From the IMG/VR virus record IMGVR_UViG_3300033144_002182, positions 1-52,663 of that record: DNA of 52,663 nt. The stretch is one strand, 5' to 3'. Below, piece by piece: positions 1,913 through 52,651 of the stretch. The stretch is from a virus (taxonomy: Duplodnaviria; Caudoviricetes). The position numbers and the translations under genes are program-made. A model generated the notes under the pieces. That model ran no database searches. It was not told the origin of the DNA and worked only from the letters and a program-made list of their open reading frames with translations. Position 1 is the stretch's first letter; each line of letters starts with the position of its first letter.

Positions 1913-1941
1913 AACTTAATCTAAGAAGTTGGTTTTGTCAA
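1913..1941 (-). promoter_or_regulatory. Sigma70-type promoter TTGACA-N17-TAAGTT
   Basis: -35 at 1936-1941, -10 at 1913-1918, 17-nt spacer, upstream of gene 1878. Confidence 0.6.
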
Positions 1942-2372
1942 ATTACTTGCTTCCGCCATGCTTCGATTTCTAGGCCCTCGCGGTCTTTCTGGCAATAGGC
2001 GTTGATACAGGCTATTGCCTCCATCGAGCCGTAACAGACCGTGGCGTAATAGCCGCACTTCCGCAGCCGTTCTAGCCACTGTTTCTGTGCTGCCGTTGAC
2101 CGCCCCCGCTGTTGTTTTAGGGCCGTGTTTCTCGGCCTCTTCATTTCGATAGCCAGCCCGTGATACCACACGCACCTTGCAAGCTCCACCGGGGCCAAGA
2201 CGAAGAAGTCTGGTACGCCGGCTTTTAGCCCCTCGTCTTTCATGTACTTGCCTTGTCTCGGTGTGCGCTTGAAGGCGTTAGGCACGGCGAAAAAGTTTTC
2301 CAGTTCAGGAAATCTCCACTCGTTCGCCGCGCACCAAATCTTCACCGCAACCTGTGCGGAATGTTCGCTCAT
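1938..2372 (-). CDS. VRR-NUC domain nuclease / Holliday junction resolvase-like
   Basis: SEH..Q, FAVPN, EGLKAGVPD, IEMK, Q..WL..L...GY motifs; start at 2372 overlaps the upstream stop (ATGA). Confidence 0.85.
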   Translation of the reverse strand: MSEHSAQVAVKIWCAANEWRFPELENFFAVPNAFKRTPRQGKYMKDEGLKAGVPDFFVLAPVELARCVWYHGLAIEMKRPRNTALKQQRGRSTAAQKQWLERLRKCGYYATVCYGSMEAIACINAYCQKDREGLEIEAWRKQVI

Positions 2373-2767
2373 GCTTGGGCCTCCGGTTTTTCGGGGTTCC
2401 CGCCGGTCGTGTCTGCTAGGGCGGCGTCTAATAAGTGCTGCGCCGTTTCCGACACGGGTGGTAATTCGCGTTTCAGCCACGCCTTAATATCCAGCAAAAC
2501 GCTCCGTAGAATCTGGTCTTTCAGCGTCTCATCGTAAGGAAGAAAGGCTATACTGAGCGTGAGCATTTTGCGGAAATCATATAGCCGCTCATAAAACTGC
2601 TTGTGGCCCGCCATGTTTTGCGGCGGCGGGTTTAGCTCTTGTGTTAGGATTCTGGCAAGCACCGCCTGAATAAACGGGAGCATCCCCTCCGTAAGGGCCT
2701 CTGTCATAACCTCGGTGGTTAGCCCTAGCCCCACGGCTTCTTCTAAATAATGGCTATCTACTAGCAT
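2369..2767 (-). CDS. Hypothetical protein
   Basis: ORF track with start trimmed to the ATG just after the Gp157 stop. Confidence 0.6.
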   Translation of the reverse strand: MLVDSHYLEEAVGLGLTTEVMTEALTEGMLPFIQAVLARILTQELNPPPQNMAGHKQFYERLYDFRKMLTLSIAFLPYDETLKDQILRSVLLDIKAWLKRELPPVSETAQHLLDAALADTTGGNPEKPEAQA

Positions 2768-2768
2768 A

Positions 2769-3278
2769 TCAATATACCCGTATATGCCCGTGCCTCGAAA
2801 TCCCGGCAATCTTTTGTGCCGCTCTCCGGGTACTGGCGTTGTCTGATTTGAGGGCGTCCGTTATCGCCTTCTTGTCTGCCGAGAATGCGATCTTCTTGAC
2901 CCGGAACCGCGATGGCAATTCCTCTTCCTTCACGTCAACGTGGACGCGCTCAGAGAATTGGAGCTTCACTTTCCCAAGAGGCGTTTCGATCTCCTGCACC
3001 TCTCGGAGCGACAGATGCTCGACCAGCCTAGCCTCCATTCTGGCTACGGCGTTTGTTGCTGCCCGAGCCTTTGCCGTCAGCCGGTCGGCCTCCTTCTTCG
3101 TGGCCTCGGCCTTTGCTTTCAGATTGGCCCGAACCATGATATAGCCCTTCATCTTCGATTCTTCGGCCACCATGAATTCGTCCAGCTTCTTTTCCGTTTC
3201 CTCGTCCAGTTCCCCTTCGGAATCCAAGAGGGCGTTTTGAAGCCCAAGCCATTCTTCTCCTAGTTCGTAAATGTTCAT
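2769..3278 (-). CDS. Siphovirus Gp157 family protein
   Basis: MNIYEL N-terminus, long coiled coil, C-terminal DKKAI..ALK motif. Confidence 0.85.
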   Translation of the reverse strand: MNIYELGEEWLGLQNALLDSEGELDEETEKKLDEFMVAEESKMKGYIMVRANLKAKAEATKKEADRLTAKARAATNAVARMEARLVEHLSLREVQEIETPLGKVKLQFSERVHVDVKEEELPSRFRVKKIAFSADKKAITDALKSDNASTRRAAQKIAGISRHGHIRVY

Positions 3279-3427
3279 TTCCTCGCCTCCATGCGTTTGA
3301 TATAAAAGTAACGGGCGAACCGCTCTGACCCGTGAGGGTAGCTCGATCCGCCCGTTGACGACAATGGAACACTCTTATCAGAGGTGCCATTTTTAAGATA
3401 GTCGGTATTCCTGATTGTAGCAATCAC
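3275..3427 (-). CDS. 50-aa hypothetical protein (MIATIRNTDYLK...RMEARK)
   Basis: Manual translation; GTG overlaps the dnaB stop (GTGA) and its TGA overlaps the Gp157 start (ATGA). Confidence 0.5.
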   Translation of the reverse strand: MIATIRNTDYLKNGTSDKSVPLSSTGGSSYPHGSERFARYFYIKRMEARK

Positions 3428-4815
3428 AATCCGCCTCTCGCTTCCGTGAAGTCTGCCGGTGTGCCGTAGGGCTCCGCTAATTTTGATAGCGTCGCGAACG
3501 TGCCGTGCCGCTTGTCGAACGACATATCAACCGTCCCCAGTGGGCCATTCCGCTGCTTAGAAAGAATAAACTCACAGACGCCTTCCAGAGAGTTCCCCGT
3601 TTCGTCGTACTTCATCCCGTAGTATTCAGGCCGGTAAAGGAACGCAACCAGATCCGCGTCCTGCTCGATACTTCCCGAGTCTCTGAGGTCAGAAAGGATC
3701 GGCCTTTTTTCGCCCCTCTTCTCAACTTCTCTCGACAACTGCGAAAGAGCCATGACTGGAATTTCCAGTTCTCTCGCCAGTGCTTTCAGGCTTCGGCTTA
3801 TGCTTGACACCTCCTGTTCGCGGTTGCTGTTCCTGTTCGATTCGCCCCGGATCAGTTGGAGATAGTCCACCACAACAAACGCCAAATCTTGTTCTGAATG
3901 CAGCCGCCGAACGCGGCTTCTCAGTTCCATCACGTTCATGGCCGGGTTGTCGTCGATAAAGATTGGAAGCTCTGATAGTTGGCCTTGCGCTCGAGCTATC
4001 CGAACCCATTCCTCCTGAGACATCCTTCCCGTCCGGGCCTTCTGAGAGTCGACTTTTGCCGCCGAGCAGATGAGTCTCAGGCTGATTTGCTGGACAGACA
4101 TTTCTAGTGAATAGAACCCTACCGCTTTACCAGACATTGATGCAGAGACGGCGCACCGGGCGGCGAATGCTGACTTGCCCATCGACGGACGTGCCGCCAG
4201 AATAATCAAATCACCGTTTTGCCAACCCGTCGTCATTTCGTCAATCTTGGATATGTGGGTCGGAATCCCCGTGACTCCACCTTCCGTATTGTGGATCTTT
4301 TCGAGCCATGCAGACAAGGCTTGCATCGCGCCAGATAGCGGCTTCGCTTTCCCCCGGCGTATACCAGAACCAATATCGTACAGGCGTTGCTCTGCCTTGT
4401 CCAGAATATCGAACGCGTCTGCCGCACCATCGAGGGCTTCCGAACGAACGGAGGTTGTCATTTCGACCACTTCTCTCAGAATCGCTTTCTCTTTGATGAT
4501 CGCGACGTATGCGCGGGTGTTCCCCGCTGTCGAGGTTCCCCGAATGGTTTCGGTCACTTCTGCCAAATAGCTTGCACCGCCAGCCTGTTTTAGGGTGCCC
4601 CGCTTCGAGAGTTTCTCCGAGACGGTTATCATATCCACCGGCTGACCGTCTGCTGTCAGTTCGAGTATTGATTGGTAGATCATGGCGTGGCGCGAATCGA
4701 ACAGGTCGTCCGGTCTTATCGTGTCCATTGCTGCCCAGATCGTTTCGCTTGAAATAAGCATAGATCCCAATACTGCTTTTTCGATCTGCTGGACGTGAGG
4801 GAGTGTTGTTTCCAT
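3424..4815 (-). CDS. dnaB: Replicative DNA helicase DnaB, full-length bacterial type
   Basis: Walker A AARPSMGKS, VVDYLQL, ALSQLSR, DLRDSGSIEQDAD, KQRNGP; N-terminal E.AVLG domain. Confidence 0.97.
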   Translation of the reverse strand: METTLPHVQQIEKAVLGSMLISSETIWAAMDTIRPDDLFDSRHAMIYQSILELTADGQPVDMITVSEKLSKRGTLKQAGGASYLAEVTETIRGTSTAGNTRAYVAIIKEKAILREVVEMTTSVRSEALDGAADAFDILDKAEQRLYDIGSGIRRGKAKPLSGAMQALSAWLEKIHNTEGGVTGIPTHISKIDEMTTGWQNGDLIILAARPSMGKSAFAARCAVSASMSGKAVGFYSLEMSVQQISLRLICSAAKVDSQKARTGRMSQEEWVRIARAQGQLSELPIFIDDNPAMNVMELRSRVRRLHSEQDLAFVVVDYLQLIRGESNRNSNREQEVSSISRSLKALARELEIPVMALSQLSREVEKRGEKRPILSDLRDSGSIEQDADLVAFLYRPEYYGMKYDETGNSLEGVCEFILSKQRNGPLGTVDMSFDKRHGTFATLSKLAEPYGTPADFTEARGGL

Positions 4816-4856
4816 GTGTCGTCATTTTGTTGGGCTTTTAGCCCCTTCCTCAACGG

Positions 4857-5001
4857 TGTTTTTATTTATTAAAAAGGTAAAGGAATAAGCGTTGTAGTAG
4901 TAGGTTTGTGGATAAATCCCTGTTTTCGGGCTAACCCCATGTAGGGGATCTTATTACCTATGGTACGGAACGGTGGATAAGTTGTTAATTAGTGTGGATA
5001 A
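4857..5001. other. oriC-like replication origin (DnaA boxes, DnaA-trios, AT-rich tract)
   Basis: Perfect TTATCCACA on the minus strand at 4907-4915 and 4993-5001, one-mismatch box at 4972-4980, TAG repeats at 4895-4903, AT tract at ~4859-4875. Confidence 0.8.
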
Positions 5002-5003
5002 GT

Positions 5004-5333
5004 TCACCTCCAGCCTTCCGCCATTTCGTCGGCTTCGTAACAGGTTTTTCTAAACCTTTCAACCTGTTCTGGTGATAGAACGAACCACTCCCGCCCAACG
5101 TGGTGCGCTCTGTAAAGACCGTGTAACATTTTTTCTACGCCCACGGGACGGCTTACGGTTACATCACAAACTAGGGTGACATCGCCGGGGCAGTGTGTTT
5201 TTATGTCACGCGCCCTCCTGTCAGGATTGCGGGAGATACCAACCTTATGAGCGATTACGCCACCGAACTCCATGACGATTAGGTAAACCCGAAAAGGCGC
5301 AACCTCTGGGCGAACACGTTTGATTTTTGTCAC
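5004..5333 (-). CDS. GIY-YIG / T5orf172-like nuclease domain protein
   Basis: VYLI...KVGIS..P..R, E..LH, GREWF motifs. Confidence 0.8.
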   Translation of the reverse strand: MTKIKRVRPEVAPFRVYLIVMEFGGVIAHKVGISRNPDRRARDIKTHCPGDVTLVCDVTVSRPVGVEKMLHGLYRAHHVGREWFVLSPEQVERFRKTCYEADEMAEGWR

Positions 5334-5626
5334 GGGTCTATTACGTCAATTCGGATCAAAGACGCCGCTGGATAGGCCATGCTCTCGAACAAAAAGAACC
5401 CTCCTTCGTGCGCAGCTTCGAGCATTTTCAAATAGGCGAACCCTGTCATGGCACCCAGATTGATCGTGATTAGATCGGGCACGATAACGGTCGGCTGACC
5501 GATCCCCTGTCGCTGCCAGCCCACGTCGCGGAATATGGCGTGATATACCCTCACATTCGGCGTCTCGGGATCCGGGGATTCGTACACATCCCCATCGAGT
5601 AAGGGGCTGTCTATTGCGTTTTTCAT
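5330..5626 (-). CDS. Hypothetical protein
   Basis: 4-nt overlaps with both neighbours. Confidence 0.65.
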   Translation of the reverse strand: MKNAIDSPLLDGDVYESPDPETPNVRVYHAIFRDVGWQRQGIGQPTVIVPDLITINLGAMTGFAYLKMLEAAHEGGFFLFESMAYPAASLIRIDVIDP

Positions 5627-5865
5627 TCGTCCACGTGTTTGAGGACTAGCCGGTATTCGGCTGTCCGGGTTTCCAGTTCCGTTATCGGAAAGTCTCCGAG
5701 TATGGAACGCCCTGCCAGATAGCCGCGAAGCGCAGCGTGGGCAAGGTGAATAATTTTCTGCTCGTCCTCCATTGTCTCAGCATCGTAATTCACCGGGACG
5801 TAGCCCGATGCCGTCGCGTGAGGGAATCCCTCGGGACTGACGTATGCAACTACCAATCGTCTCAT
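5623..5865 (-). CDS. Hypothetical protein
   Basis: ATGA overlaps on both sides. Confidence 0.65.
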   Translation of the reverse strand: MRRLVVAYVSPEGFPHATASGYVPVNYDAETMEDEQKIIHLAHAALRGYLAGRSILGDFPITELETRTAEYRLVLKHVDE

Positions 5866-6071
5866 ACCGCCACCTCCTCAAGTTTGCCGACTGACGTGTA
5901 TGTATAATTAACTGGATCGTCCGAAACTTCAGCCGCGACGCGGTCGCAACCCGTCCAGCGCATCCAAAGATTATAGCCGTATCGGTCGGCCTCATCTTCG
6001 GTCGCAAATCGAATTGCGTTGTAAGACGGTTTCACTTGGTTAGGAACGTATACCGCTACTTTATAGCTCAT
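5862..6071 (-). CDS. Hypothetical protein
   Basis: ATGA overlaps on both sides. Confidence 0.65.
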   Translation of the reverse strand: MSYKVAVYVPNQVKPSYNAIRFATEDEADRYGYNLWMRWTGCDRVAAEVSDDPVNYTYTSVGKLEEVAV

Positions 6072-6931
6072 GCCTCCACCTCTTCTTTTTCGGTCATTAA
6101 GAAATCAACCGCCGCCCGCGCTTGGCTTGCGGCCTTGAAGATATACTTCTTGTCGTTTTTGAGTGCGCCCAACCAGCCCTTGACGTATGCGCCGTGATTC
6201 TCGTCCATCGCATCCCCGACGATACCCAGTCTGGCGAGCATCATCGCCGCGCCGATCTCAGCTACCAATTCCTCAAAAGCGTATTTCGCTGTGTCCTTCG
6301 TCGTGATCGTTCGGCCCAGTCTCGGGGCTGTCCAGTGGATCAATTCGTGGCAGAGCGTCCCGGCGTACTCCAAATCGGAATCGAAGCTGGTCGTGGACGG
6401 CAAACTCACTACATCCGTATCGGGCCTGTAACAAGCGCGTCCGGGGTTGAGGGTAAGTGTAAGGTCGTGCCGGGAGCGGAGCGTATCGACTATGCTGGCG
6501 AGTTGTGGCGGCTCCTGAACACCGTTCTGGATGTCGATGTCCGTTTGCTCGATATTGAATACCCGGTAGTAGCGCAAAACCAGATACGTGTCGTCCGAAT
6601 TCTCGACTCCGTTCTTGCGCTCTTTCTCTTTCCAAGCCTCGCTTTTCGTGCTTTGCTTCCAAAACAGGATCATCGTTGACTTGCTGCCTTTCTTAACCGT
6701 GGCTTTCAGCTTCCGGGCCTGATTAAAAGTGAGCCAGTAATTCGATCCGAACTCGTGCTTCTCTCCTGAGAGCCAGCACTGTAAAACATTGATGCCGCTG
6801 TACGGCTTCTTGGTCGTGTAATTGGTCGGTGCCGCAGCCCAACCCTTCTTCCACGGAACGTCTTTGCCCGATTCCAAATGTTCTATCATCTGGTCGGTGA
6901 CGTGCTGATATATGTCGAAGTCTCGTGCCAT
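6068..6931 (-). CDS. ardC: ArdC-like antirestriction protein (ssDNA-binding domain plus zincin-like domain)
   Basis: PW.K.W, Y.GIN, W.TF.QA, V.KG.K, Y.VFN.EQ, HELIHWT, YAFEELVAE motifs. Confidence 0.92.
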   Translation of the reverse strand: MARDFDIYQHVTDQMIEHLESGKDVPWKKGWAAAPTNYTTKKPYSGINVLQCWLSGEKHEFGSNYWLTFNQARKLKATVKKGSKSTMILFWKQSTKSEAWKEKERKNGVENSDDTYLVLRYYRVFNIEQTDIDIQNGVQEPPQLASIVDTLRSRHDLTLTLNPGRACYRPDTDVVSLPSTTSFDSDLEYAGTLCHELIHWTAPRLGRTITTKDTAKYAFEELVAEIGAAMMLARLGIVGDAMDENHGAYVKGWLGALKNDKKYIFKAASQARAAVDFLMTEKEEVEA

Positions 6932-6944
6932 TGTCGTTTTGGTT

Positions 6945-6998
6945 TATCTGTTTTTTATCTGATCTCTATCTGTTTTTTGGCGTTTTATCTGTTTTTTT
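6945..6998. repeat. Intergenic TATCTG(TTTTTT) repeats upstream of ardC
   Basis: TATCTG at 6945, 6956, 6967 (11-bp period) and 6986; three copies extend to TATCTGTTTTTT. Confidence 0.7.
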
Positions 6999-7440: not shown

Positions 7441-7513
7441 AATCTAGGGAATTACCAGAGGTTTGTCAAGTAAATTGACAGGAATAAGCAAAGAAATGTC
7501 AATTATTTTGACA
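7441..7513 (-). promoter_or_regulatory. Sigma70 promoter TTGACA-N17-TAGATT with two TGTCAA-N5-TTGACA palindromes
   Basis: -10 at 7441-7446, -35 at 7464-7469; palindromes at 7464-7480 and 7497-7513. Confidence 0.8.
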
Positions 7514-8197
7514 CTATTTCTCCAAAAGGGCCTCTAACCGCTGGATCATTGCCATAACCGTCGCATACGTGGGGCTGTTGTCCAGTATGTCGAGAGAGGA
7601 TGTTCGCTTCGCGTCGTCCAGTTCGCCTTTCTCGATTGTCTCGATAAGCAGGTCTTTGGCCGTGTCGATCAGGCCCGCAGACGCCGGGGCCTTCAAGTCG
7701 GGTTTCGGCTTGGGTTTTGGTTTCGAGGCGGTCTGCCGCTTTCTGCTCGCAGGCTGGATGTCTGACCGGGTTTCGTCGCCGTCAGCCGTGATCAGCATAA
7801 ATGCGAAAACAGCCGCGTACTTTTTGGCGTAGCTCATGGCCTTGCCAGAATGCTTGTCCTGTGCATCGAGCCCAGTGCCAATCGTTCGGATAATCTCGAA
7901 CTCTTCCGGCTTGTCGGCATTCGTGATCTTCGTCGCCATGTGGACCGTCACCATAAAGGCCGTGCCGCCAGAACTCGTGGTAACCTCGTGTTCCTCGTAG
8001 GACTCCACCGAGGGCAGGAGTGTAACGCCCCACTCTTGGCACAAGCCACTGATCGTATCAATCACCGCGTCGTGAGAGATTCCCTTGTAGCTGACATTCC
8101 CGAACCTGACCGCCGTGTCTTTAATGACCGGCCCCGCCGCCTTCGATATGGCAAGTAGCTTCTGGTGCAGATTCATCGTCGTTCGTTGTGTTTCCAT
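7514..8197 (-). CDS. erf: ERF-family single-strand annealing protein
   Basis: L.QKL, F..Y, G.G.D..DK..GKAMSYAKKYA motif. Confidence 0.85.
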   Translation of the reverse strand: METQRTTMNLHQKLLAISKAAGPVIKDTAVRFGNVSYKGISHDAVIDTISGLCQEWGVTLLPSVESYEEHEVTTSSGGTAFMVTVHMATKITNADKPEEFEIIRTIGTGLDAQDKHSGKAMSYAKKYAAVFAFMLITADGDETRSDIQPASRKRQTASKPKPKPKPDLKAPASAGLIDTAKDLLIETIEKGELDDAKRTSSLDILDNSPTYATVMAMIQRLEALLEK

Positions 8198-10594: not shown

Positions 10595-11935
10595 ATGTTT
10601 TTAGGAACGATACACGAAAATGTGCGCCTGTTTGTGGCGTCACTGGCCGCAGAAAACCGAGGCAAGAAGATCATTGCCGGATGCTCTGACAACCTGACCG
10701 TCGAGCGGCTATTCTCACGCTTTGGCGTACCCGCCGAGATTCATTCCAATGACGTAACGCTCCACACGTATCTGCTGACCAGTGCCGTCCGTCAGACTCC
10801 GGTTAAGCTGGAACTCATGGATTCCGACTTCGCATTCGTGGCCCCCTTTCTGGGTGCCTCCGACCCGTGGATTGCTTGCTCCGCCGTAATGATCGTTTTT
10901 CGGATGCTCCAATACGAGAATCAGGGCAACGCGCACAACCGCCGAATGTGGCGGCACCACATAGCCAACTTCGAAGGACTCGTCTATCAGTCGGCAGCGA
11001 AAATGTCCTACGGGCTACCCCCAGAGATAACGTCGTACCACAACGGCGACGTATTCGACCACTTCAAGCGATTCGCCGACGACAAGGACGCCATCTTCAC
11101 CGCCTCCTTCCCGTTCTTCACTGGCGGCTACGAGAAAATGTTCAAGCGCATGGACGAAATCTTCTCATGGCCGAAGCCAGAATACCCGATGCTGGACGAC
11201 AAGCGTCGAGAGGAAATCATCAAATGGATGCGCGAGCGGAAACACTTCTTCCTTCTGTACGAGCCCCTGTCCAGAATCAAGCCTTCACTCGTAGCCAACA
11301 AACACCGGGACGTGTGGGTCTACTGCTACACGAACCTGACGAAAGACAAAGCCGTATTCCGGCGCAAACGAAGCGAAGAGGATCCGAAGTACCCGATCCT
11401 GCCAGCGGATTACGAATTCACCCGGCAGACACAAATCTCCCTCACCAAAGTACCGTCGGCGAACTCAGCCTTTTACAAAGGACAGTACCTCGCTAAGAAC
11501 ATCGACTACTCAAACGCAATGTGGGCCTTCGCGGTTATGGCCGACGATTACGTAATTGGATTCCTCGAATACTCGCTCACGTCGAGAGCCTTCGGAGCGC
11601 GAGACTCCATTTACATGATGGGAGATTTTGTCGTAGGCCAGAACAAAACGGCCAAGCTATCGAAACTGGTTGTCATGTTGTCGTGCTGCGCCGACATCCG
11701 AAAGGAGATCCGGCGGCTGACCGTGCAGGACATAAAAAAGGTTCTCACAACGGCCTTCACCGACCGAGCCGTTTCGATGAAATATCGAGGCGTATACAGA
11801 CTCGTTAAGCGAGGCGAAAACAACGGAAAGAAGTTCCTCAACTACGAAGCCCTCTTGGGCGGACGAAGGTCTAAACAGACGTACCAACAATGGTTCAGAA
11901 AAACTCAACGCCAGAAGCCCTCGTCGAACAGCTAA
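10595..11935 (+). CDS. Putative DNA base-modification enzyme: degenerate adenine-MTase-like N-terminus plus GNAT/Mom-like C-terminus
   Basis: GCSDN, HSNDV, SFPFF..GYEK; C-terminal QYL, FAV..D.VIG, SKLV, TTAFT..VSMKYRG; located just upstream of ParB-TerS-TerL. Confidence 0.6.
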   Translation: MFLGTIHENVRLFVASLAAENRGKKIIAGCSDNLTVERLFSRFGVPAEIHSNDVTLHTYLLTSAVRQTPVKLELMDSDFAFVAPFLGASDPWIACSAVMIVFRMLQYENQGNAHNRRMWRHHIANFEGLVYQSAAKMSYGLPPEITSYHNGDVFDHFKRFADDKDAIFTASFPFFTGGYEKMFKRMDEIFSWPKPEYPMLDDKRREEIIKWMRERKHFFLLYEPLSRIKPSLVANKHRDVWVYCYTNLTKDKAVFRRKRSEEDPKYPILPADYEFTRQTQISLTKVPSANSAFYKGQYLAKNIDYSNAMWAFAVMADDYVIGFLEYSLTSRAFGARDSIYMMGDFVVGQNKTAKLSKLVVMLSCCADIRKEIRRLTVQDIKKVLTTAFTDRAVSMKYRGVYRLVKRGENNGKKFLNYEALLGGRRSKQTYQQWFRKTQRQKPSSNS

Positions 11936-12711
11936 ACGACGCGCTGATTGCCGACGAACTCACGCCTTACCGCATAGGTATAGCCGACCCGAAGCTGCTT
12001 GCTCCGCAGGACGTAAACGCTCACTTCATGCCGAAGAACGTCTACGACCAACTGGTAGCGAACGTCCAACGAGACGGGAATCTCTCGTCGATGCCTTTCT
12101 GCTGGAAGAAACCAACGGGCGAAATGTCGATCCTCTCTGGACACCACCGAGTCGAGGCGGCAATTCAGGCAGGAGCGCAAAAGGTTCTCTTTCTCTACAC
12201 AGACGCCAAGCTCAACGAACAACAACGCATCGCCATACAGCTATCCCACAACTCACTCGTCGGGCTCGACGACACGGCGATATTGAAGGAACAGTGGGCG
12301 AAGCTCCGAGACGTATCACTGAAACTATACTCAGGACTGGACGACCGGGCACTCAAAACATTCAACCCCGTTCTCTATTCCTCGTACAACGAAGCCTCTC
12401 TACGGGTGCAGACCATAGAACTCCAATTCCTGTCAACAGAACTCGAGGCCATAAAAACCACGTTCGAGAAATTAAACAAGTCAGCACGGCACCACTTCGC
12501 GGCGAGAATGGAGGACTTTGAACCATTCCTCGAAGCATTCATAAGACTTAAAGAATCATCAACGATCTATAACTCATCAACAGCCTTCCTCATGCTTATC
12601 CGTGCTGCTGAACTGATTGCAGACTTCATGGACGATTACAAGCGTGAGCCAACAGGAGAGGAACTGGAAGTGATACACGACAAGCTGAACGACGAGGGAT
12701 TGATTGACTGA
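11890..12711 (+). CDS. ParB/Srx-like N-terminal domain protein
   Basis: NAHFM, L..N...DG, ILSGHHRVEAA motifs. Confidence 0.8.
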   Translation: MVQKNSTPEALVEQLNDALIADELTPYRIGIADPKLLAPQDVNAHFMPKNVYDQLVANVQRDGNLSSMPFCWKKPTGEMSILSGHHRVEAAIQAGAQKVLFLYTDAKLNEQQRIAIQLSHNSLVGLDDTAILKEQWAKLRDVSLKLYSGLDDRALKTFNPVLYSSYNEASLRVQTIELQFLSTELEAIKTTFEKLNKSARHHFAARMEDFEPFLEAFIRLKESSTIYNSSTAFLMLIRAAELIADFMDDYKREPTGEELEVIHDKLNDEGLID

Positions 12712-12729: not shown

Positions 12730-13155
12730 ATGGGAAGGAAACCAAGCGAGTCCGAAAAGAAGAAAATCGCTGCCAGACGTGCGAAGGTGGCTGCGAATAT
12801 CGTTGCTGGCGTGGATTACCGAACGATGTCTGCGGCTCTTGTGCAAGAGGGCTATTCGGCATCACTCGGCACGATTGCTTCTGACGCGAAATGGTTACTC
12901 GCAGATTGGCAAAAACGATCTGTTGAGGAAATGGACAACTTCGTCCGCGTGGAGCTACGAAGGCTCGACATTGCACTGAATTCAATCTGGGACAAGGTGA
13001 CCGACGGAAATGACCGATCTATTGAAACCATGCTCAAACTCATGGAGAGACGGGCTAAGTACCTGGGATTAGATGCAGCCACTACCATCGAACACGGACT
13101 CCCCGACGACTTCAAAATTAGCGGAATCAAGTTCTCTCCACGTCCCGCTGAATGA
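12730..13155 (+). CDS. terS: Terminase small subunit (putative)
   Basis: HTH-like N-terminus, RRAKYLGLD motif; immediately upstream of TerL. Confidence 0.7.
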   Translation: MGRKPSESEKKKIAARRAKVAANIVAGVDYRTMSAALVQEGYSASLGTIASDAKWLLADWQKRSVEEMDNFVRVELRRLDIALNSIWDKVTDGNDRSIETMLKLMERRAKYLGLDAATTIEHGLPDDFKISGIKFSPRPAE

Positions 13156-14446
13156 CGTATTCTTCAAGGACGCAGACAACGAACTAGACTTTGCTTACCA
13201 TCCGGGCCAACTAGCGGCACACGGTTCTGATGCCAGAACGATACTTGTGCTTGCCGGTACGCAGTCGGGCAAAACCGTCTATGGCCCGTGGTGGCTCTTG
13301 CGTGAGATTATGCACCGTGGCCCCGGAGACTATCTGTTTGCCACGCCGACCTATCCGCTTCTCGAAGTCAAGGCCCTTCCGTCGTTTCGATTCCTCTTCC
13401 AAACGATCCTGAAACTGGGCACCTACAAAACCGCACCCGTCCGGGCGTTCACGTTCAACAAGAACGGAGAGGACTTGCTACGCAAAAACGGCTGGAAAAT
13501 AACCGAACCGACGCGGATCGTGTTCGGCCATGCGTCGAGTCCAGAATCTCTCGAATCAGCAACGTACAAAGCTGCCGTACTGGATGAGGCTGGACAGAAG
13601 CAATTCAAAGTCGACTCGAAGCAAGCCATCGACCGGCGACTCTCTATCCACCGGGGCCGGATGCTGATTACCACAACACCGTACCACATCGGCTGGCTCA
13701 AGCTCGACATATACGACAAGGCAGCAAACCGGAAGGGCTCAGAGAAGGACATCGAAGTCATTCAGTTTGAATCAATAATGAACCCGACGTTTCCCGTAGA
13801 CGAATACGAACGGGCTCAAAGACTCCTACCCCCGTGGAAATTCAATCTCTTCTATCGGGCCATGTGGGAGCGGCCTATCGGTCAAATCTATTCGTCATTC
13901 GACGAAGAACGCGACGTGGTTGACCCCTTCCCGATACCCGAAAACTGGTTGCGGTTCCTCGGCATGGACTTTGGCGGCGTGAATACCGCTGGGGTCTATT
14001 TCGCCGTCGATCCTGACTACAAACAAATGGTCGTCTACCGCGAATACCATGCTGGCGACAAGTCAGCGGCGGAACACACAAAGGATCTCTTGAAAGGTGA
14101 AGCGATCATTCCGACGTGCTTTGGCGGGGCGGCTTCGGAAAAACAGTGGCGTGTCGAGTTTACGAACTCAGGACTGCCGATCTCACGTCCTCCAATAGGT
14201 GATGTAGAGGTAGGAATCAATCGCGTCTTTGCGATGCACGTGGAGGGCCGGATCAAGGTGTTCCGTAATTGTTTGAAATATATCGACGAAAAGCTGCGAT
14301 ACTCCCGCAAACTCAACGATATGGACGAGCCTACCGAGGACATCGAGGACAAGGCCACGTTTCACTTGATGGATGCCGAACGCTATATCATCGCTCACCT
14401 TTGGACTGGTGCCGGAGATTTGGGCGGCGAGGTTATTGGATTCTAG
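13073..14446 (+). CDS. terL: Terminase large subunit
   Basis: Q motif HPGQ, Walker A AGTQSGKT, Walker B AAVLDEAG, TTTP, nuclease GMDFG and HLMDAERY; exact start uncertain. Confidence 0.93.
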   Translation: MQPLPSNTDSPTTSKLAESSSLHVPLNDVFFKDADNELDFAYHPGQLAAHGSDARTILVLAGTQSGKTVYGPWWLLREIMHRGPGDYLFATPTYPLLEVKALPSFRFLFQTILKLGTYKTAPVRAFTFNKNGEDLLRKNGWKITEPTRIVFGHASSPESLESATYKAAVLDEAGQKQFKVDSKQAIDRRLSIHRGRMLITTTPYHIGWLKLDIYDKAANRKGSEKDIEVIQFESIMNPTFPVDEYERAQRLLPPWKFNLFYRAMWERPIGQIYSSFDEERDVVDPFPIPENWLRFLGMDFGGVNTAGVYFAVDPDYKQMVVYREYHAGDKSAAEHTKDLLKGEAIIPTCFGGAASEKQWRVEFTNSGLPISRPPIGDVEVGINRVFAMHVEGRIKVFRNCLKYIDEKLRYSRKLNDMDEPTEDIEDKATFHLMDAERYIIAHLWTGAGDLGGEVIGF

Positions 14447-14476: not shown

Positions 14477-14549
14477 GCGCGGGTAACCTAATGTAGGGTG
14501 CCTTGCTCCCGGTGAGGATGTGGAGGTTCAAATCCTTCCCCGCGCTCAA
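14477..14549 (+). tRNA. Atypical tRNA-Gly (anticodon CCC)
   Basis: Acceptor GCGCGGG/CCCGCGC, U73, D arm ACCT/GGGT, anticodon arm CCTTG-CTCCCGG-TGAGG, T arm GGAGG-TTCAAAT-CCTTC; ends in CAA. Confidence 0.8.
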
Positions 14550-14565
14550 CTATTCAATCGGAGCC

Positions 14566-16242
14566 ATGCCACGCACAGAAGCCACTCAGTTCTTCTCAGA
14601 TCGTCAGGGCTTGGAGGGTTCAACAGGAACCACCATCCAAAAAACCCCTCTCGTTTGGTCAAGCACGAATGATCCGCTTGACAGTATTCCCAACGGCTGG
14701 GTTCTGTACGAACACCCCGAATTCGCGGCGATGTACCAAGACTGGGAGTATTGCTGGGATATGTATACCGGCGATGCAGCACGGCCCGAAAAGGTCGAAG
14801 CCTATCTGCTTCAACGCGCCCTCGGTGAATCGGACGAAGATTACAACGAACGAAAACGCAACGCTTCTCTTTCTCCGCATTATGCTTTCGCTCTCGATGC
14901 GCTGGCTGGATTACTGGCGACAGCCGAAACCGAAACGAAGCGGCAGTTTCAGGACGAAGAGTCGTCGAAAGGATTGGGCGACAAGGACGAGGCCGGCACT
15001 CCTGCTCATTCGCTCTGGAATAACGCCGACGGCGAAGGAACCAACTATCTCCCTTTCTGGCAGCAAGTCGCAATCCGCCTCCTGATCTTCAAACGCCTCT
15101 GGATATTAGCGCAGGGCGTAAAACGCCAGACTATCGTACTGGAAGATGGCACTACGAAAGAGATCCCAGTAAAAGAACCTCATTGGCGGCACCTGACCCC
15201 AATGGCTGTCACGAACTGGAAACATAATGAGCAGAATGGACGGCTTGAAACCGTCGTGGTTCATACGAAGATCGACACCCGGAACTCCATCGAATCAACG
15301 CCCCAAGTCTCAGACGTGTATACTGTTTATGAGATCGGGGGCTGGACAGCATACCAGAAGATTGTTCGGAACGGCAAGCTCATAATACTGCCCTACGATA
15401 CAGGCACTTATGAGTATAGCGAGCGCATGGGAGCGGAGTTGATCCCAGCGTTGCCGATATTCATGGCGGAGCTACCGATGGCTCGCAACGTGTCTCTCAA
15501 CGCTGCCACTCGCGCTAATGCGAACTGGAACATGGAGTCTGAGCGGGATGCACTTCTCCGTAACGGAAACATACCCCGCTTCGTCCTCGTGGCGCACGAA
15601 GGCGCGTACAAAACAATGGTACAGCGTTTAGTTAAAGGCTGGAAGTTGCTTCGCCATGATCCCGAACAAGACAAACAGCATTACTATGTCAGTCCTCCGG
15701 CAGAAGCGGCAAAGCTCTCGACTGAGGTACTGAAAGAGCGTATACCGGAATTTTATGCTACAACCTTCCGAGATTTTGGCGATGCGGCAAAAGAGCGCAC
15801 AGCTACCGAGGTTCGAAGCAGACAAAAGTCCGGTATCGAGGCGGCATTGGCTCTAACCGTAGGAACTCTGGAAGAAGCCGAAAACCGTGGACTATTCCTC
15901 CAAGAACAAATCAACTTCCCAGACGATCGGGATGCGTGGGGGCAAGCCACAGCGACCTATTCCAGAAACTTCCTGCCTTTGGAGCCGGGTGCCATTGCCG
16001 ATTTGATTATGACCTCATTCTTCCCGACAGATTCTCTACCGGCTGGCCCAGAGGCGACGAAAAACGCCGTGATCTATATGCTTGACTATCTCGGGCTCCA
16101 ATACGACGAAGCCGAAGTAGAACAGGCGGTTGAGGAACGCGAGTCAGCCAATGACCGGGACAATCTTGCTTTTGGCACCGACCTAGCATTCTCGCCAGAA
16201 GAACTCGAAGGCCCCGCCGAGGATGAAATCCAAGAGGGATGA
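14566..16242 (+). CDS. Portal protein
   Basis: Position after TerL; HPEF...W....D.Y.G, YL....E....Y..R, ERTATE motifs; start trimmed because the longer ORF overlaps the tRNA. Confidence 0.85.
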   Translation: MPRTEATQFFSDRQGLEGSTGTTIQKTPLVWSSTNDPLDSIPNGWVLYEHPEFAAMYQDWEYCWDMYTGDAARPEKVEAYLLQRALGESDEDYNERKRNASLSPHYAFALDALAGLLATAETETKRQFQDEESSKGLGDKDEAGTPAHSLWNNADGEGTNYLPFWQQVAIRLLIFKRLWILAQGVKRQTIVLEDGTTKEIPVKEPHWRHLTPMAVTNWKHNEQNGRLETVVVHTKIDTRNSIESTPQVSDVYTVYEIGGWTAYQKIVRNGKLIILPYDTGTYEYSERMGAELIPALPIFMAELPMARNVSLNAATRANANWNMESERDALLRNGNIPRFVLVAHEGAYKTMVQRLVKGWKLLRHDPEQDKQHYYVSPPAEAAKLSTEVLKERIPEFYATTFRDFGDAAKERTATEVRSRQKSGIEAALALTVGTLEEAENRGLFLQEQINFPDDRDAWGQATATYSRNFLPLEPGAIADLIMTSFFPTDSLPAGPEATKNAVIYMLDYLGLQYDEAEVEQAVEERESANDRDNLAFGTDLAFSPEELEGPAEDEIQEG

Positions 16243-18789: not shown

Positions 18790-18854
18790 CATCACATCAA
18801 CGCGCCCCCCGGATGCTTTTATCGTTTTGATTGTTGAACCAATGGGGGTGCAAA

Positions 18855-19691
18855 ATGGCACTTACTAACTTTGTCCCAACGATTTGGTCGCGGAGGCTGA
18901 ATGTCAGTCTCAGGCGTGATTTGGTTGGAATGTCTGTCGTCAATGAGGATTATATCGGAGAAGTCCGGGCCGCTGGCGACACACTGAAAATCAATCGCCC
19001 TGCCGCTATCAATGTTGGCGATTACAATGTTGGTTCCGACATCACGATCCAGACCCCAACGTCTTCCCAACTCGAACTAAATATCGACCAGTTTAAGTAT
19101 GTTGCTTTTTCTGTCGATGATGTTCGAAAGGTACAGGCGAACGTCGAGCTTATGGCTCCCTACGTGAACGAAGCGAACTACGCTCTGCGGAAAACCGTGG
19201 ACGAATTTATCTTCGGACACTATACGGGCGTTGATGCAAGTAATGTAGTAGCGAAAACGGTACTCGCTGCTGATACTGTCTACGGCAAGATTGCCGAGGC
19301 TGCTCGTCGTCTGGATGCAAATGATGTCCCAACAGATGGTCGCTTCCTCGCACTGTCACCACTGATAGTCGAATTCCTACGTACTTCTACGCAGTTCACC
19401 GCAGCCTCTGAGCTTGGTGATAACGTGAAGAAAACCGGACTTGTTGGCGAAATTCTCGGCTTCAATATCTATCGGTCAAACTCTTTAACGAGTGCCGCCG
19501 ATGGATCTGATACCGTGCAACATTGCCTGTTCGGTCACACGTCGGCCTTGACCTTCGGTATGCAGTTCACGAAAATGGAATCTGCCCGCATGGAGAAGCA
19601 ATTCTCCGATCTCGTGAAGGGCCTTTTGATTTACGGCGCACAAACCGTAAAGGCGAAGGCACTTGGCGATTTGAGGCATATTACCTCATAG
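18855..19691 (+). CDS. Major capsid protein (HK97 fold)
   Basis: FVPTIWS, GDTLKI, L.IDQ.KY..F.VDD, LD.NDVP.DGR, G.I.GF.IY.SN, GL..YG motifs. Confidence 0.92.
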   Translation: MALTNFVPTIWSRRLNVSLRRDLVGMSVVNEDYIGEVRAAGDTLKINRPAAINVGDYNVGSDITIQTPTSSQLELNIDQFKYVAFSVDDVRKVQANVELMAPYVNEANYALRKTVDEFIFGHYTGVDASNVVAKTVLAADTVYGKIAEAARRLDANDVPTDGRFLALSPLIVEFLRTSTQFTAASELGDNVKKTGLVGEILGFNIYRSNSLTSAADGSDTVQHCLFGHTSALTFGMQFTKMESARMEKQFSDLVKGLLIYGAQTVKAKALGDLRHITS

Positions 19692-50429: not shown

Positions 50430-51170
50430 CTACCTCCGTCCGCGCTGTTTCATAGACCTGATCGCGGTCAAGAGCCCGACTAGCCGGACTCCTGCCGTTT
50501 GTAGATTCGCCTCAAGCTCAACAACCCGATTATCAGCATCAATAACCCGCTGTTGCAGATCGGCGATTTCGGCGGAGCTTGGAAAGTTATCTATGACCGA
50601 TTGGAGAGAGTCGGCCCTAGCTACCTCCGAAGCGTATAGTGTGGTTAATGCACTGTTCGCGTCTGAAATGCTCCGTATCTGGTTTGCCTGTGCCGCTATC
50701 GTTAGGGAGTCTGCGGCGTAGGTGGAGTCCATGACAGCCGCCAGTACTACGATCTCGTTCGTTAGGGAATCGAGTAAGGCGGAAAGCGTTGTGTCTGCTG
50801 CCGTCGCTTTAACAATGTATATCGCGTCGTTTATGTACGTCAGCCCTGTGATGAAGAAGGGCTCACCTTCATATAGCCCGTCCTTTTGTGCTGTAATCGG
50901 ATCGTCTCCATGAACTGCAAAGGCGAGGTTTTGCCCAAGAGGTACCGCATCGACGCTTTCCCCAAAGCATCTCGTATCTGTCGATCCAGTGTATCGGGTG
51001 TCGGTTTCGCTTCTGATTGATTCATGGATTATCACCGTCGCGTTGAAGATGTTGCCCGTGCCGTCGGCGCATTGCCCGTAGGCCACTGTCAGGGCGTAAA
51101 GTCCAAAGAGCGTTGCCACAAGAAAAAATGCCGCGCCTAATATCCAGAAGTTTCTAGGTGTGTTTTTCAT
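50430..51170 (-). CDS. Membrane-anchored or exported coiled-coil protein
   Basis: TM segment FWILGAAFFLVATLFGLYALTV; heptad C-terminus; start trimmed to MKNT with AAGGAG upstream. Confidence 0.65.
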   Translation of the reverse strand: MKNTPRNFWILGAAFFLVATLFGLYALTVAYGQCADGTGNIFNATVIIHESIRSETDTRYTGSTDTRCFGESVDAVPLGQNLAFAVHGDDPITAQKDGLYEGEPFFITGLTYINDAIYIVKATAADTTLSALLDSLTNEIVVLAAVMDSTYAADSLTIAAQANQIRSISDANSALTTLYASEVARADSLQSVIDNFPSSAEIADLQQRVIDADNRVVELEANLQTAGVRLVGLLTAIRSMKQRGRR

Positions 51171-51321
51171 CACAATGCTCCTTTTGGTTTTCGTCGGTAA
51201 GAACAGTATCAAAATCGCCTCTTTCATGTTTCCTCCTGATTTCTCGTGCCAGCCACGCCGTCGATACCATGTGGGGCAGCGTGTTAATCCAGATGGCTAT
51301 TTCCTCAATCGTTTCATCCAC
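51154..51321 (-). CDS. 55-aa hypothetical protein
   Basis: Manual translation from GTG (MDETIEEIAIWIN...); fills the gap after the HNH gene. Confidence 0.4.
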   Translation of the reverse strand: MDETIEEIAIWINTLPHMVSTAWLAREIRRKHERGDFDTVLTDENQKEHCDEKHT

Positions 51322-51938: not shown

Positions 51939-51940
51939 TT

Positions 51941-51988
51941 CATATCAGTTTGTGGTAACAATTCTTATCATGGTAACAATTCTTATCA
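51941..51988. repeat. Boundary repeat B copy 1, including an 18-bp tandem duplication
   Basis: 51941-51970 matches 52311-52340 at 24/30; TGGTAACAATTCTTATCA at 51953 and 51971. Confidence 0.8.
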
Positions 51989-52170: not shown

Positions 52171-52313
52171 TTCTTTTTGTATGTGGCGACGGAAAACATT
52201 GCTGCTGCCCATGCGGCGTTGTATGTAGCCGTCGAAACGTCTTCCACGAAGTACATATTGTATACTGCAAGACAGAGTTGAATGAATCCTAAAAAAAAAA
52301 AAAACTGGCTCAT
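52152..52313 (-). CDS. 53-aa membrane microprotein with a T14 tract (MSQFFFFLGFIQLCLAVY...APTTE)
   Basis: Manual translation; open with 14 T; bounded by repeats B and A. Confidence 0.6.
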   Translation of the reverse strand: MSQFFFFLGFIQLCLAVYNMYFVEDVSTATYNAAWAAAMFSVATYKKKAPTTE

Positions 52314-52340
52314 TTCAGTTTGTGGTAATTGCTATTATCA
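52311..52340. repeat. Boundary repeat B copy 2
   Basis: Shared core TCAGTTTGTGGTAA and terminal TTATCA. Confidence 0.75.
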
Positions 52341-52628: not shown

Positions 52629-52651
52629 GTCTCTACTCGGTTGTGGGGGCT
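52620..52651. repeat. Boundary repeat A copy 2
   Basis: 30/32 identical to 52139-52170. Confidence 0.9.

Follow-up and report, generated by a model that had tools for sequence, protein, structure and literature searches.

The 188-bp intergenic gap that precedes the replicative helicase gene dnaB in an uncultured tailed phage carries DnaA boxes, a short spacer, a run of 3'-GAT-5' DnaA-trios and an A/T tract, laid out in the same order and orientation as the parts of bacterial chromosome origins. Origins of phages and plasmids, as presented in textbooks, depend on an initiator encoded by the element itself, with DnaA acting at most as a helper. On balance, we lean towards reading this gap as a compact chromosome-type unwinding module that serves as a DnaA-dependent origin of phage replication, with the phage DnaB being loaded there.

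The phage is represented by a linear IMG/VR virus record of 52,663 bp, which was analysed over its whole length (hereafter the window) and is rated 59% complete by CheckV. Its encoded genes identify it as an uncultured tailed phage: besides the large terminase, the portal and the major head protein (Table 1), the plus strand codes for a head morphogenesis protein and for long tail genes, and the early genes occupy the minus strand towards the two contig ends. In transcription order, the left early block comprises a DUF488 protein, several small unknown ORFs, an ERF-type annealing protein, ArdC, three small ORFs, a T5orf172/MUG113 (GIY-YIG-like) protein, the 188-bp gap, DnaB, a Gp157/Gam-like protein, a VRR-NUC nuclease and further unknown ORFs. 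Genes overlap by 4 nt from 6931 down to 5004, and only five gaps of this block exceed 40 bp, that before dnaB among them. The contig ends (1-272 and 52629-52663) have no terminal overlap; if they were adjacent, the minus-strand ORF that is cut at the left end (1-272) would stop at 52633-52635, 5 nt before the start of the next ORF, which hints weakly that less of the genome may be missing than the 59% rating implies. Protein searches of IMG/VR with DnaB and with a 446-aa ORF (10595-11935) returned no relatives, and blastn of positions 3400-6000 against GenBank phages gave short matches to dnaB alone, at 68-71% identity.

Several signals of gene expression can be recognized elsewhere on the contig. 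The start context ACGACAATG is common to several genes (for example, the ORFs starting at 6931, 8197, 9025, 10544 and 1878), that of dnaB being ACGACACATG, and a Shine-Dalgarno-like 4-mer is found upstream of only 16 of 48 ORFs; these start contexts suggest an unusual conserved signal for translation initiation. The gap upstream of erf (7464-7513) holds two 17-bp palindromes 16 nt apart, each including a TTGACA, with TAGATT 17 nt after the second. This arrangement is probably a repressor-controlled early promoter, from which the phage appears to use sigma-70-like signals. A 31-nt repeat, in copies 74-81% identical, occupies two intergenic gaps of the right-hand early block (51940-51988 and 52310-52340) and may represent a repeated promoter or operator. 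A ParB-like match at 11890-12711 fits nuclease/methyltransferase families as well as partition-protein families, and does not demonstrate a partition system.

The boxes, the trios and the neighbouring dnaB gene all lie on the minus-strand positions at which the first-pass annotation had placed them, and all boxes point in one direction, as it had reported (Table 1). The starts of the distal boxes are 10 and 11 bp apart, forming a strong-weak-strong head-to-tail array, and the centre of the proximal box is 65 and 86 bp away from the centres of the distal boxes, i.e. ~6.2 and ~8.2 helical turns. The trios read as CTA triplets on the minus strand, and their plus-strand complement is presumably the track on which DnaA binds single-stranded DNA; the next two triplets, GTT and GCG, depart from the trio pattern, and 19 nt of mixed sequence separate the last trio from the A/T tract. 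In nearest-neighbour calculations, this tract is the least stable 17-mer of the 52.7-kb window (in a tie) and starts its least stable 30-mer, and it ranks second at 20 and 50 bp. The other top-ranking unstable windows are also intergenic, phage intergenic regions being generally A/T-rich, so that such a tract ahead of a gene is no specific mark of an origin. A GC-rich hairpin between the proximal and distal boxes has no T-run after it and was not called a terminator, nor was any other terminator called in the 188-bp gap.

Table 1. Coordinates of the dnaB gap, its candidate elements and selected phage genes in the window
Feature	Position	Strand	Remarks
VRR-NUC nuclease	1938-2480	-	
Gp157/Gam-like protein	2769-3278	-	
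dnaB, 463-aa replicative helicase	3424-4815	-	start at 4815; Pfam
17-bp pure A/T tract, candidate DNA unwinding element	4859-4875	.	nearest-neighbour stability
Three DnaA-trios (3'-GAT-5' x3)	4895-4903	+	CTA triplets on minus strand; plus strand TAGTAGTAG
Spacer AAC, 3 nt, proximal box to trios	4904-4906	-	sequence
Proximal DnaA box, perfect consensus	4907-4915	-	sequence
GC hairpin, 4-bp stem, 5-nt loop	4935-4947	-	preceded by the gap's only GATC
Sigma-70-like promoter-like site, TTAACA-17 nt-TACCAT, toward dnaB	4960-4988	-	consensus match only
Distal DnaA box 2, 1 mismatch (last base C)	4972-4980	-	sequence
Degenerate box between distal boxes, 3 mismatches	4983-4991	-	sequence
Distal DnaA box 1, perfect consensus 9-mer	4993-5001	-	sequence
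T5orf172/MUG113 (GIY-YIG-like) domain gene, 109 aa	5004-5333	-	stop codon 2 nt before distal box 1
ArdC	6068-6931	-	
ERF-type annealing protein	7514-8197	-	
Large terminase	13073-14446	+	
Portal	14503-16242	+	
Major head protein	18831-19691	+	

Boxes with at most one mismatch are found 15 times in the window against 8.7 expected, and its only two perfect boxes are both in the dnaB gap, 86 bp apart. None of 600 first-order Markov simulations of the window produced at least three same-strand boxes within 100 bp, and none produced a perfect box followed by three CTA within 0-16 nt. Given the box cluster, its orientation, the A/T tract and the intergenic position combined, the box-trio module is unlikely to be a product of chance. 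A GC-skew inflection, which had been suggested as a further check, is absent at 4.9 kb, where the skew follows gene orientation.

How closely does this module resemble the basal unwinding system (BUS) of bacterial origins? In the available text of Pelliciari et al. 2021 (PMC8287927), a BUS is searched for as a box that departs from the consensus at no more than two positions, followed after 0-16 bp by three or more trios whose central base is adenine. GAT is the trio seen most often, and spacers most frequently measure 10-13 bp when taken from whichever box of a tandem pair matches better. In Bacillus subtilis, the available text of Richardson 2019 (PMC6669920) describes two box subregions in incC, the distal one being required. 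The phage gap has a perfect proximal box, a spacer of 3 bp (spacers of this length also occur at bacterial loci beside dnaA), and exactly three trios, the minimum, on the correct strand and on the correct side of the box. The least stable 30-mer starts at 4859, although it lies 19 nt past the last trio, and the distal boxes, 65-86 bp upstream of the proximal one, form a second subregion roughly in helical phase, as in B. subtilis incC. The location differs: bacterial modules sit by dnaA/dnaN or by a phosphoglucose isomerase-universal stress protein (pgi-usp) locus, whereas this one is on a phage contig, between dnaB and a GIY-YIG-like gene, and coincides with no skew switch.

Comparison with bacterial origins supports the structural reading of the first-pass annotation, which had recognized a BUS-type succession of box, short spacer, 3'-GAT-5' trios and A/T tract. 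A perfect box followed by any 3 nt and CTACTACTAC (22 bp altogether) was found at 22 loci in 185,579 species genomes (one genome per species), most of them between ORFs of ~450 aa and ~370 aa and with A/T-rich DNA after the motif. Flanking ORFs could be typed for 21 of these loci (one being too short): of 41 ORFs, 18 are DnaA, as recognized by its ATPase domain, and 14 are DnaN, with three beta-clamp domains. A single locus (L007) is inside an ORF and is probably due to chance. Because the flanking genes are mostly dnaA and dnaN, the 22-bp box-trio motif is nearly diagnostic of true origins, and its orientation in the phage is the correct one. Judged by its sequence, the phage module would thus be a new instance of the known BUS architecture, smaller and less redundant than its bacterial counterparts.

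The helicase gene provides an indication of the host. The claim that the phage supplies its own DnaB was borne out by Pfam (DnaB_C, 9e-101; DnaB N-terminal domain, 6e-26), and, when aligned with 33 cellular homologues, the protein agrees with them at all invariant columns, so the gene appears to be intact. In a collection of 5.8 billion proteins, its best matches come from cellular organisms and share 49-50% identity with it, the named ones belonging to Rhodothermales, Balneolales and Bacteroidia, and its best genome loci are in Rhodothermales and Balneolia, while the best viral DnaB is only 44% identical. The Rhodothermales/Balneolales are therefore the probable host clade. Five genomes of this group have clusters of perfect consensus boxes upstream of dnaA, from which the DnaA of the host group would be expected to read the consensus box. 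Two of the candidate host genomes (G001 and G002) each have two separate DnaA-family genes above the Pfam cut-off (L258, L259, L263 and L264).

Within the order of G001 (Rhodothermales), a perfect box followed by three CTA within 16 nt was found in 4 of 201 genomes, against none for the reversed control, and three of these four loci are dense clusters, with 5-15 boxes in ~400 bp. Similarly, a search of this order with the end of the proximal box and the CTACTACTACAAC trio-run pattern recovered 9 of 285 genomes, while the control recovered 2. Eight of the nine loci look like origins, with a tandem box pair, a GC-rich spacer of 3-4 nt, three or four CTA, CAAC and A/T-rich DNA, and with 4 to 17 boxes within 400 bp. 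The 13-base run of the phage, CTACTACTACAAC, is present in six of these eight; in the two others, CAAC is preceded by one more CTA, making four. The trio run of the phage module is thus common to these loci, from which the module differs in being reduced: a single proximal box instead of a tandem pair, an AAC spacer instead of a GC-rich one, three trios, an A/T tract set back by 19 nt instead of following at once, and 3-4 boxes instead of 4-17. In the same order, box clusters with trios (L345-L347 and L350-L357) are located near phosphoglucose isomerase and universal stress protein genes, away from dnaA, and this neighbourhood is likely the position of oriC in the Rhodothermales-type order.

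Similar modules are found in other viruses. A perfect box followed by three CTA within 0-16 nt occurs at 88 IMG/VR loci (92 matches), a raw count little different from those of the controls with wrong-strand trios (66 loci) or an inverted box (59 loci). The difference appears when two or more additional boxes are required in the 200 bp to either side: of 72 distinct contexts, 39 are retained, against 4 of 35 for wrong-strand trios and 3 of 38 for the inverted box, and a correctly oriented trio run beside a box cluster would therefore rarely arise by chance. None of the 64 ORFs that flank 37 distinct viral modules is DnaA or DnaN, and the flanking genes include ERF, major capsid protein, terminase, holin and a GIY-YIG protein, which rules out that these modules are mis-binned bacterial dnaA-dnaN fragments. 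Modules made of a box cluster and a trio run thus recur across phage contigs, and that of the present phage is not an isolated oddity. Their association with dnaB is another matter: a DnaB gene is present within the fetched stretch at only one of 37 other viral BUS-like loci, and, in the 400 bp upstream of dnaB at the 80 nearest viral loci (35-44% identity), perfect boxes are lacking altogether and a box with one mismatch is present at only 7 of the 80. The adjacency to dnaB therefore looks particular to this phage rather than a general rule. One further viral locus (L002, 1790-1905), on a high-GC contig, consists of a low-GC insert of ~75 bp, bracketed by a 20-nt direct repeat, in which a perfect box is accompanied by five CTA, a stretch of A/T and two boxes in inverted orientation; it has the appearance of an inserted cassette that carries a BUS-like module.

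If the gap functions as an origin, host DnaA would bind the distal strong-weak-strong array (5001-4972) and the perfect proximal box (4915-4907), and DnaA-ATP would oligomerise from the latter onto the three plus-strand 3'-GAT-5' trios (4895-4903). Strand separation would then spread into the A/T tract (4875-4859), and the phage DnaB would be loaded, host primase and polymerase being used thereafter. A consensus scan found no promoter-like site on the A/T tract, in agreement with this role. Against it, the trios are at the minimum number, the spacer contains A/T instead of being GC-rich, the tract is 19 nt off, and, at 59% completeness, replication genes may be located off the contig.

Would host DnaA be sufficient, a phage initiator being dispensable? 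The first-pass annotation had noted that no phage initiator, primase or polymerase is recognizable, and this holds for the 32 early ORFs scanned with Pfam, PHROGs and NCBIfam, in which no helicase loader was found either, most of the ORFs having no match at all. Rep, O, DnaD or primase-type families remained absent at Pfam E-values up to 5, and NCBIfam gave nothing usable at E-values up to 0.1. The proposal that the phage relies on host DnaA alone is consistent with the absence of any known initiator family among these ORFs, but it is not established by it, considering the 59% rating of the contig, the unannotated ORFs, iteron-like repeats elsewhere and the lack of a skew inflection. These repeats lie in the 67-bp gap upstream of ardC (6943-6997), where three to four A-rich 14-nt units are spaced by 19-22 bp and an inner 6-mer recurs at intervals of ~11 bp. 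The units may act as iterons, as operators or as a leader element, in connection with another origin or with a regulator.

An origin that needs an unrecognised phage initiator, encoded by an unannotated ORF or off the contig, with DnaA as a helper in the style of P1 oriR or of iteron plasmids, is in our opinion quite unlikely. Such systems (P1 oriR, RK2, F, pSC101, R6K) do recruit host DnaA through consensus boxes next to an A/T-rich element, but, in the available text of a 2024 review (PMC10797057), DnaA assists the plasmid Rep, which acts through iterons as the main initiator, and no trios are reported. About 20 early ORFs of the phage are unannotated and could include an initiator, among them a 186-aa ORF (1064-1624) that has no homologue in the protein collection searched and for which the ESM Atlas gave sub-threshold helix-turn-helix leads only; another of 265 aa (50430-51227) gave nothing there. 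The repeats upstream of ardC could be the binding sites of such a protein, and the completeness rating would leave room for it off the contig. Set against this, the dnaB gap (4816-5003) has trios and is devoid of iterons or direct repeats other than the boxes, and no Rep family was detected in the scanned ORFs, though on a possibly incomplete contig. Moreover, trios bind DnaA in single-stranded form, whereas the published data, as far as given in PMC10797057, do not indicate DnaA on the single-stranded unwinding element of plasmids. The main rival to an origin function is of a different kind: the gap would be a DnaA-controlled dnaB promoter, in which the boxes are operators and the trios and A/T tract are incidental. 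We regard it as unlikely, although several features speak for it. On the dnaB strand, the gap has a single promoter-like site, whose -35 hexamer falls between distal boxes 1 and 2 and whose spacer contains box 2, phage intergenic regions are generally A/T-rich anyway, and 7 of the 36 closest cellular dnaB loci (in Cytophagales, Sphingobacteriales and related groups) have 2-4 consensus boxes within ~270 bp upstream, some in the same orientation as in the phage (L046, L054). These cellular clusters are more likely regulatory, and control of dnaB by DnaA appears to be a real theme in Bacteroidota, but one that does not account for the trios: a CTA trio run is present in none of the seven, and no cluster precedes dnaB within 600 bp at the 10 loci closest to that of the phage (Rhodothermales, Balneolales and neighbours), one of which has a single box with one mismatch. 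In addition, a run of three trios 3 nt from a perfect box is ~10 times rarer in the orientation controls, and its bacterial cases are nearly always at the origin. For similar reasons, the capture from the host of a dnaB gene together with its DnaA-box promoter was rejected as the source of the whole module, since the 10 closest loci are without a cluster and the distant ones without trios. The two functions are compatible, and the distal boxes may in addition control transcription of dnaB, in which case transcription would cross the unwinding module.

It is very improbable that the boxes bind DnaA for a non-replicative purpose, whether to draw DnaA away from the host origin by titration or, as has been suggested for T5, to tether the phage DNA to DnaA at the membrane. 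There is a precedent in T5-like phages, whose eight conserved consensus boxes at the injection-stop region are argued not to serve replication (bioRxiv 10.1101/866236); in the available text of that work, they are paired in inverted repeats of the terminal repeat, and no trios are described. Three boxes would be few for titration, and neither titration nor tethering explains oriented trios beside the least stable DNA. Chance co-occurrence without function is scarcely credible: among ~250,000 windows surveyed, a lone perfect box with three CTA is expected a few times (by estimate), but both perfect boxes that the window contains are in one non-coding gap, at a distance of 86 bp, and none of the 600 simulations gave either the cluster or the pattern. 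The nearest published likenesses to a DnaA-dependent phage origin are Ori-Finder 'oriC' calls in phage G (PMC12484599) and in the Pseudomonas phage PseuGes_254 (PMC11512268), both with boxes and the former also with a spacer and a trio. As presented in the available text, these calls are default output of a bacterial predictor, with no controls or comparison. Beyond such automatic calls, the main texts available describe no phage origin composed of DnaA boxes and trios, although supplements may hold more.

A stronger version of the origin reading would make the phage a DnaA-only replicon, equipped with a pared-down origin module of the host clade and a host-like DnaB, and with its start of replication gated by host DnaA-ATP and the cell cycle. 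This we consider possible but doubtful, and the cell-cycle coupling, plasmid-like state and DnaA titration that the first-pass annotation had envisaged are speculation. If the phage origin does consist of boxes and DnaA-trios, it would mean that a virus is started by the cell-cycle initiator of its own host, which bears on how an infection senses host physiology and on its competition with the chromosome for DnaA-ATP. It may also assist host prediction, as the trio run and box layout match the clade of the closest DnaB. With one proximal box and three trios, the module would offer a very small natural test case for minimal DnaA-driven unwinding. The 39 viral contexts, against 3-4 in the controls and with none of 64 flanking ORFs being DnaA or DnaN, suggest that the phenomenon is general and can be searched for. 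If the DnaA-only reading is true, these IMG/VR contexts would point to a widespread and undescribed class of phage origins that mimic those of chromosomes.
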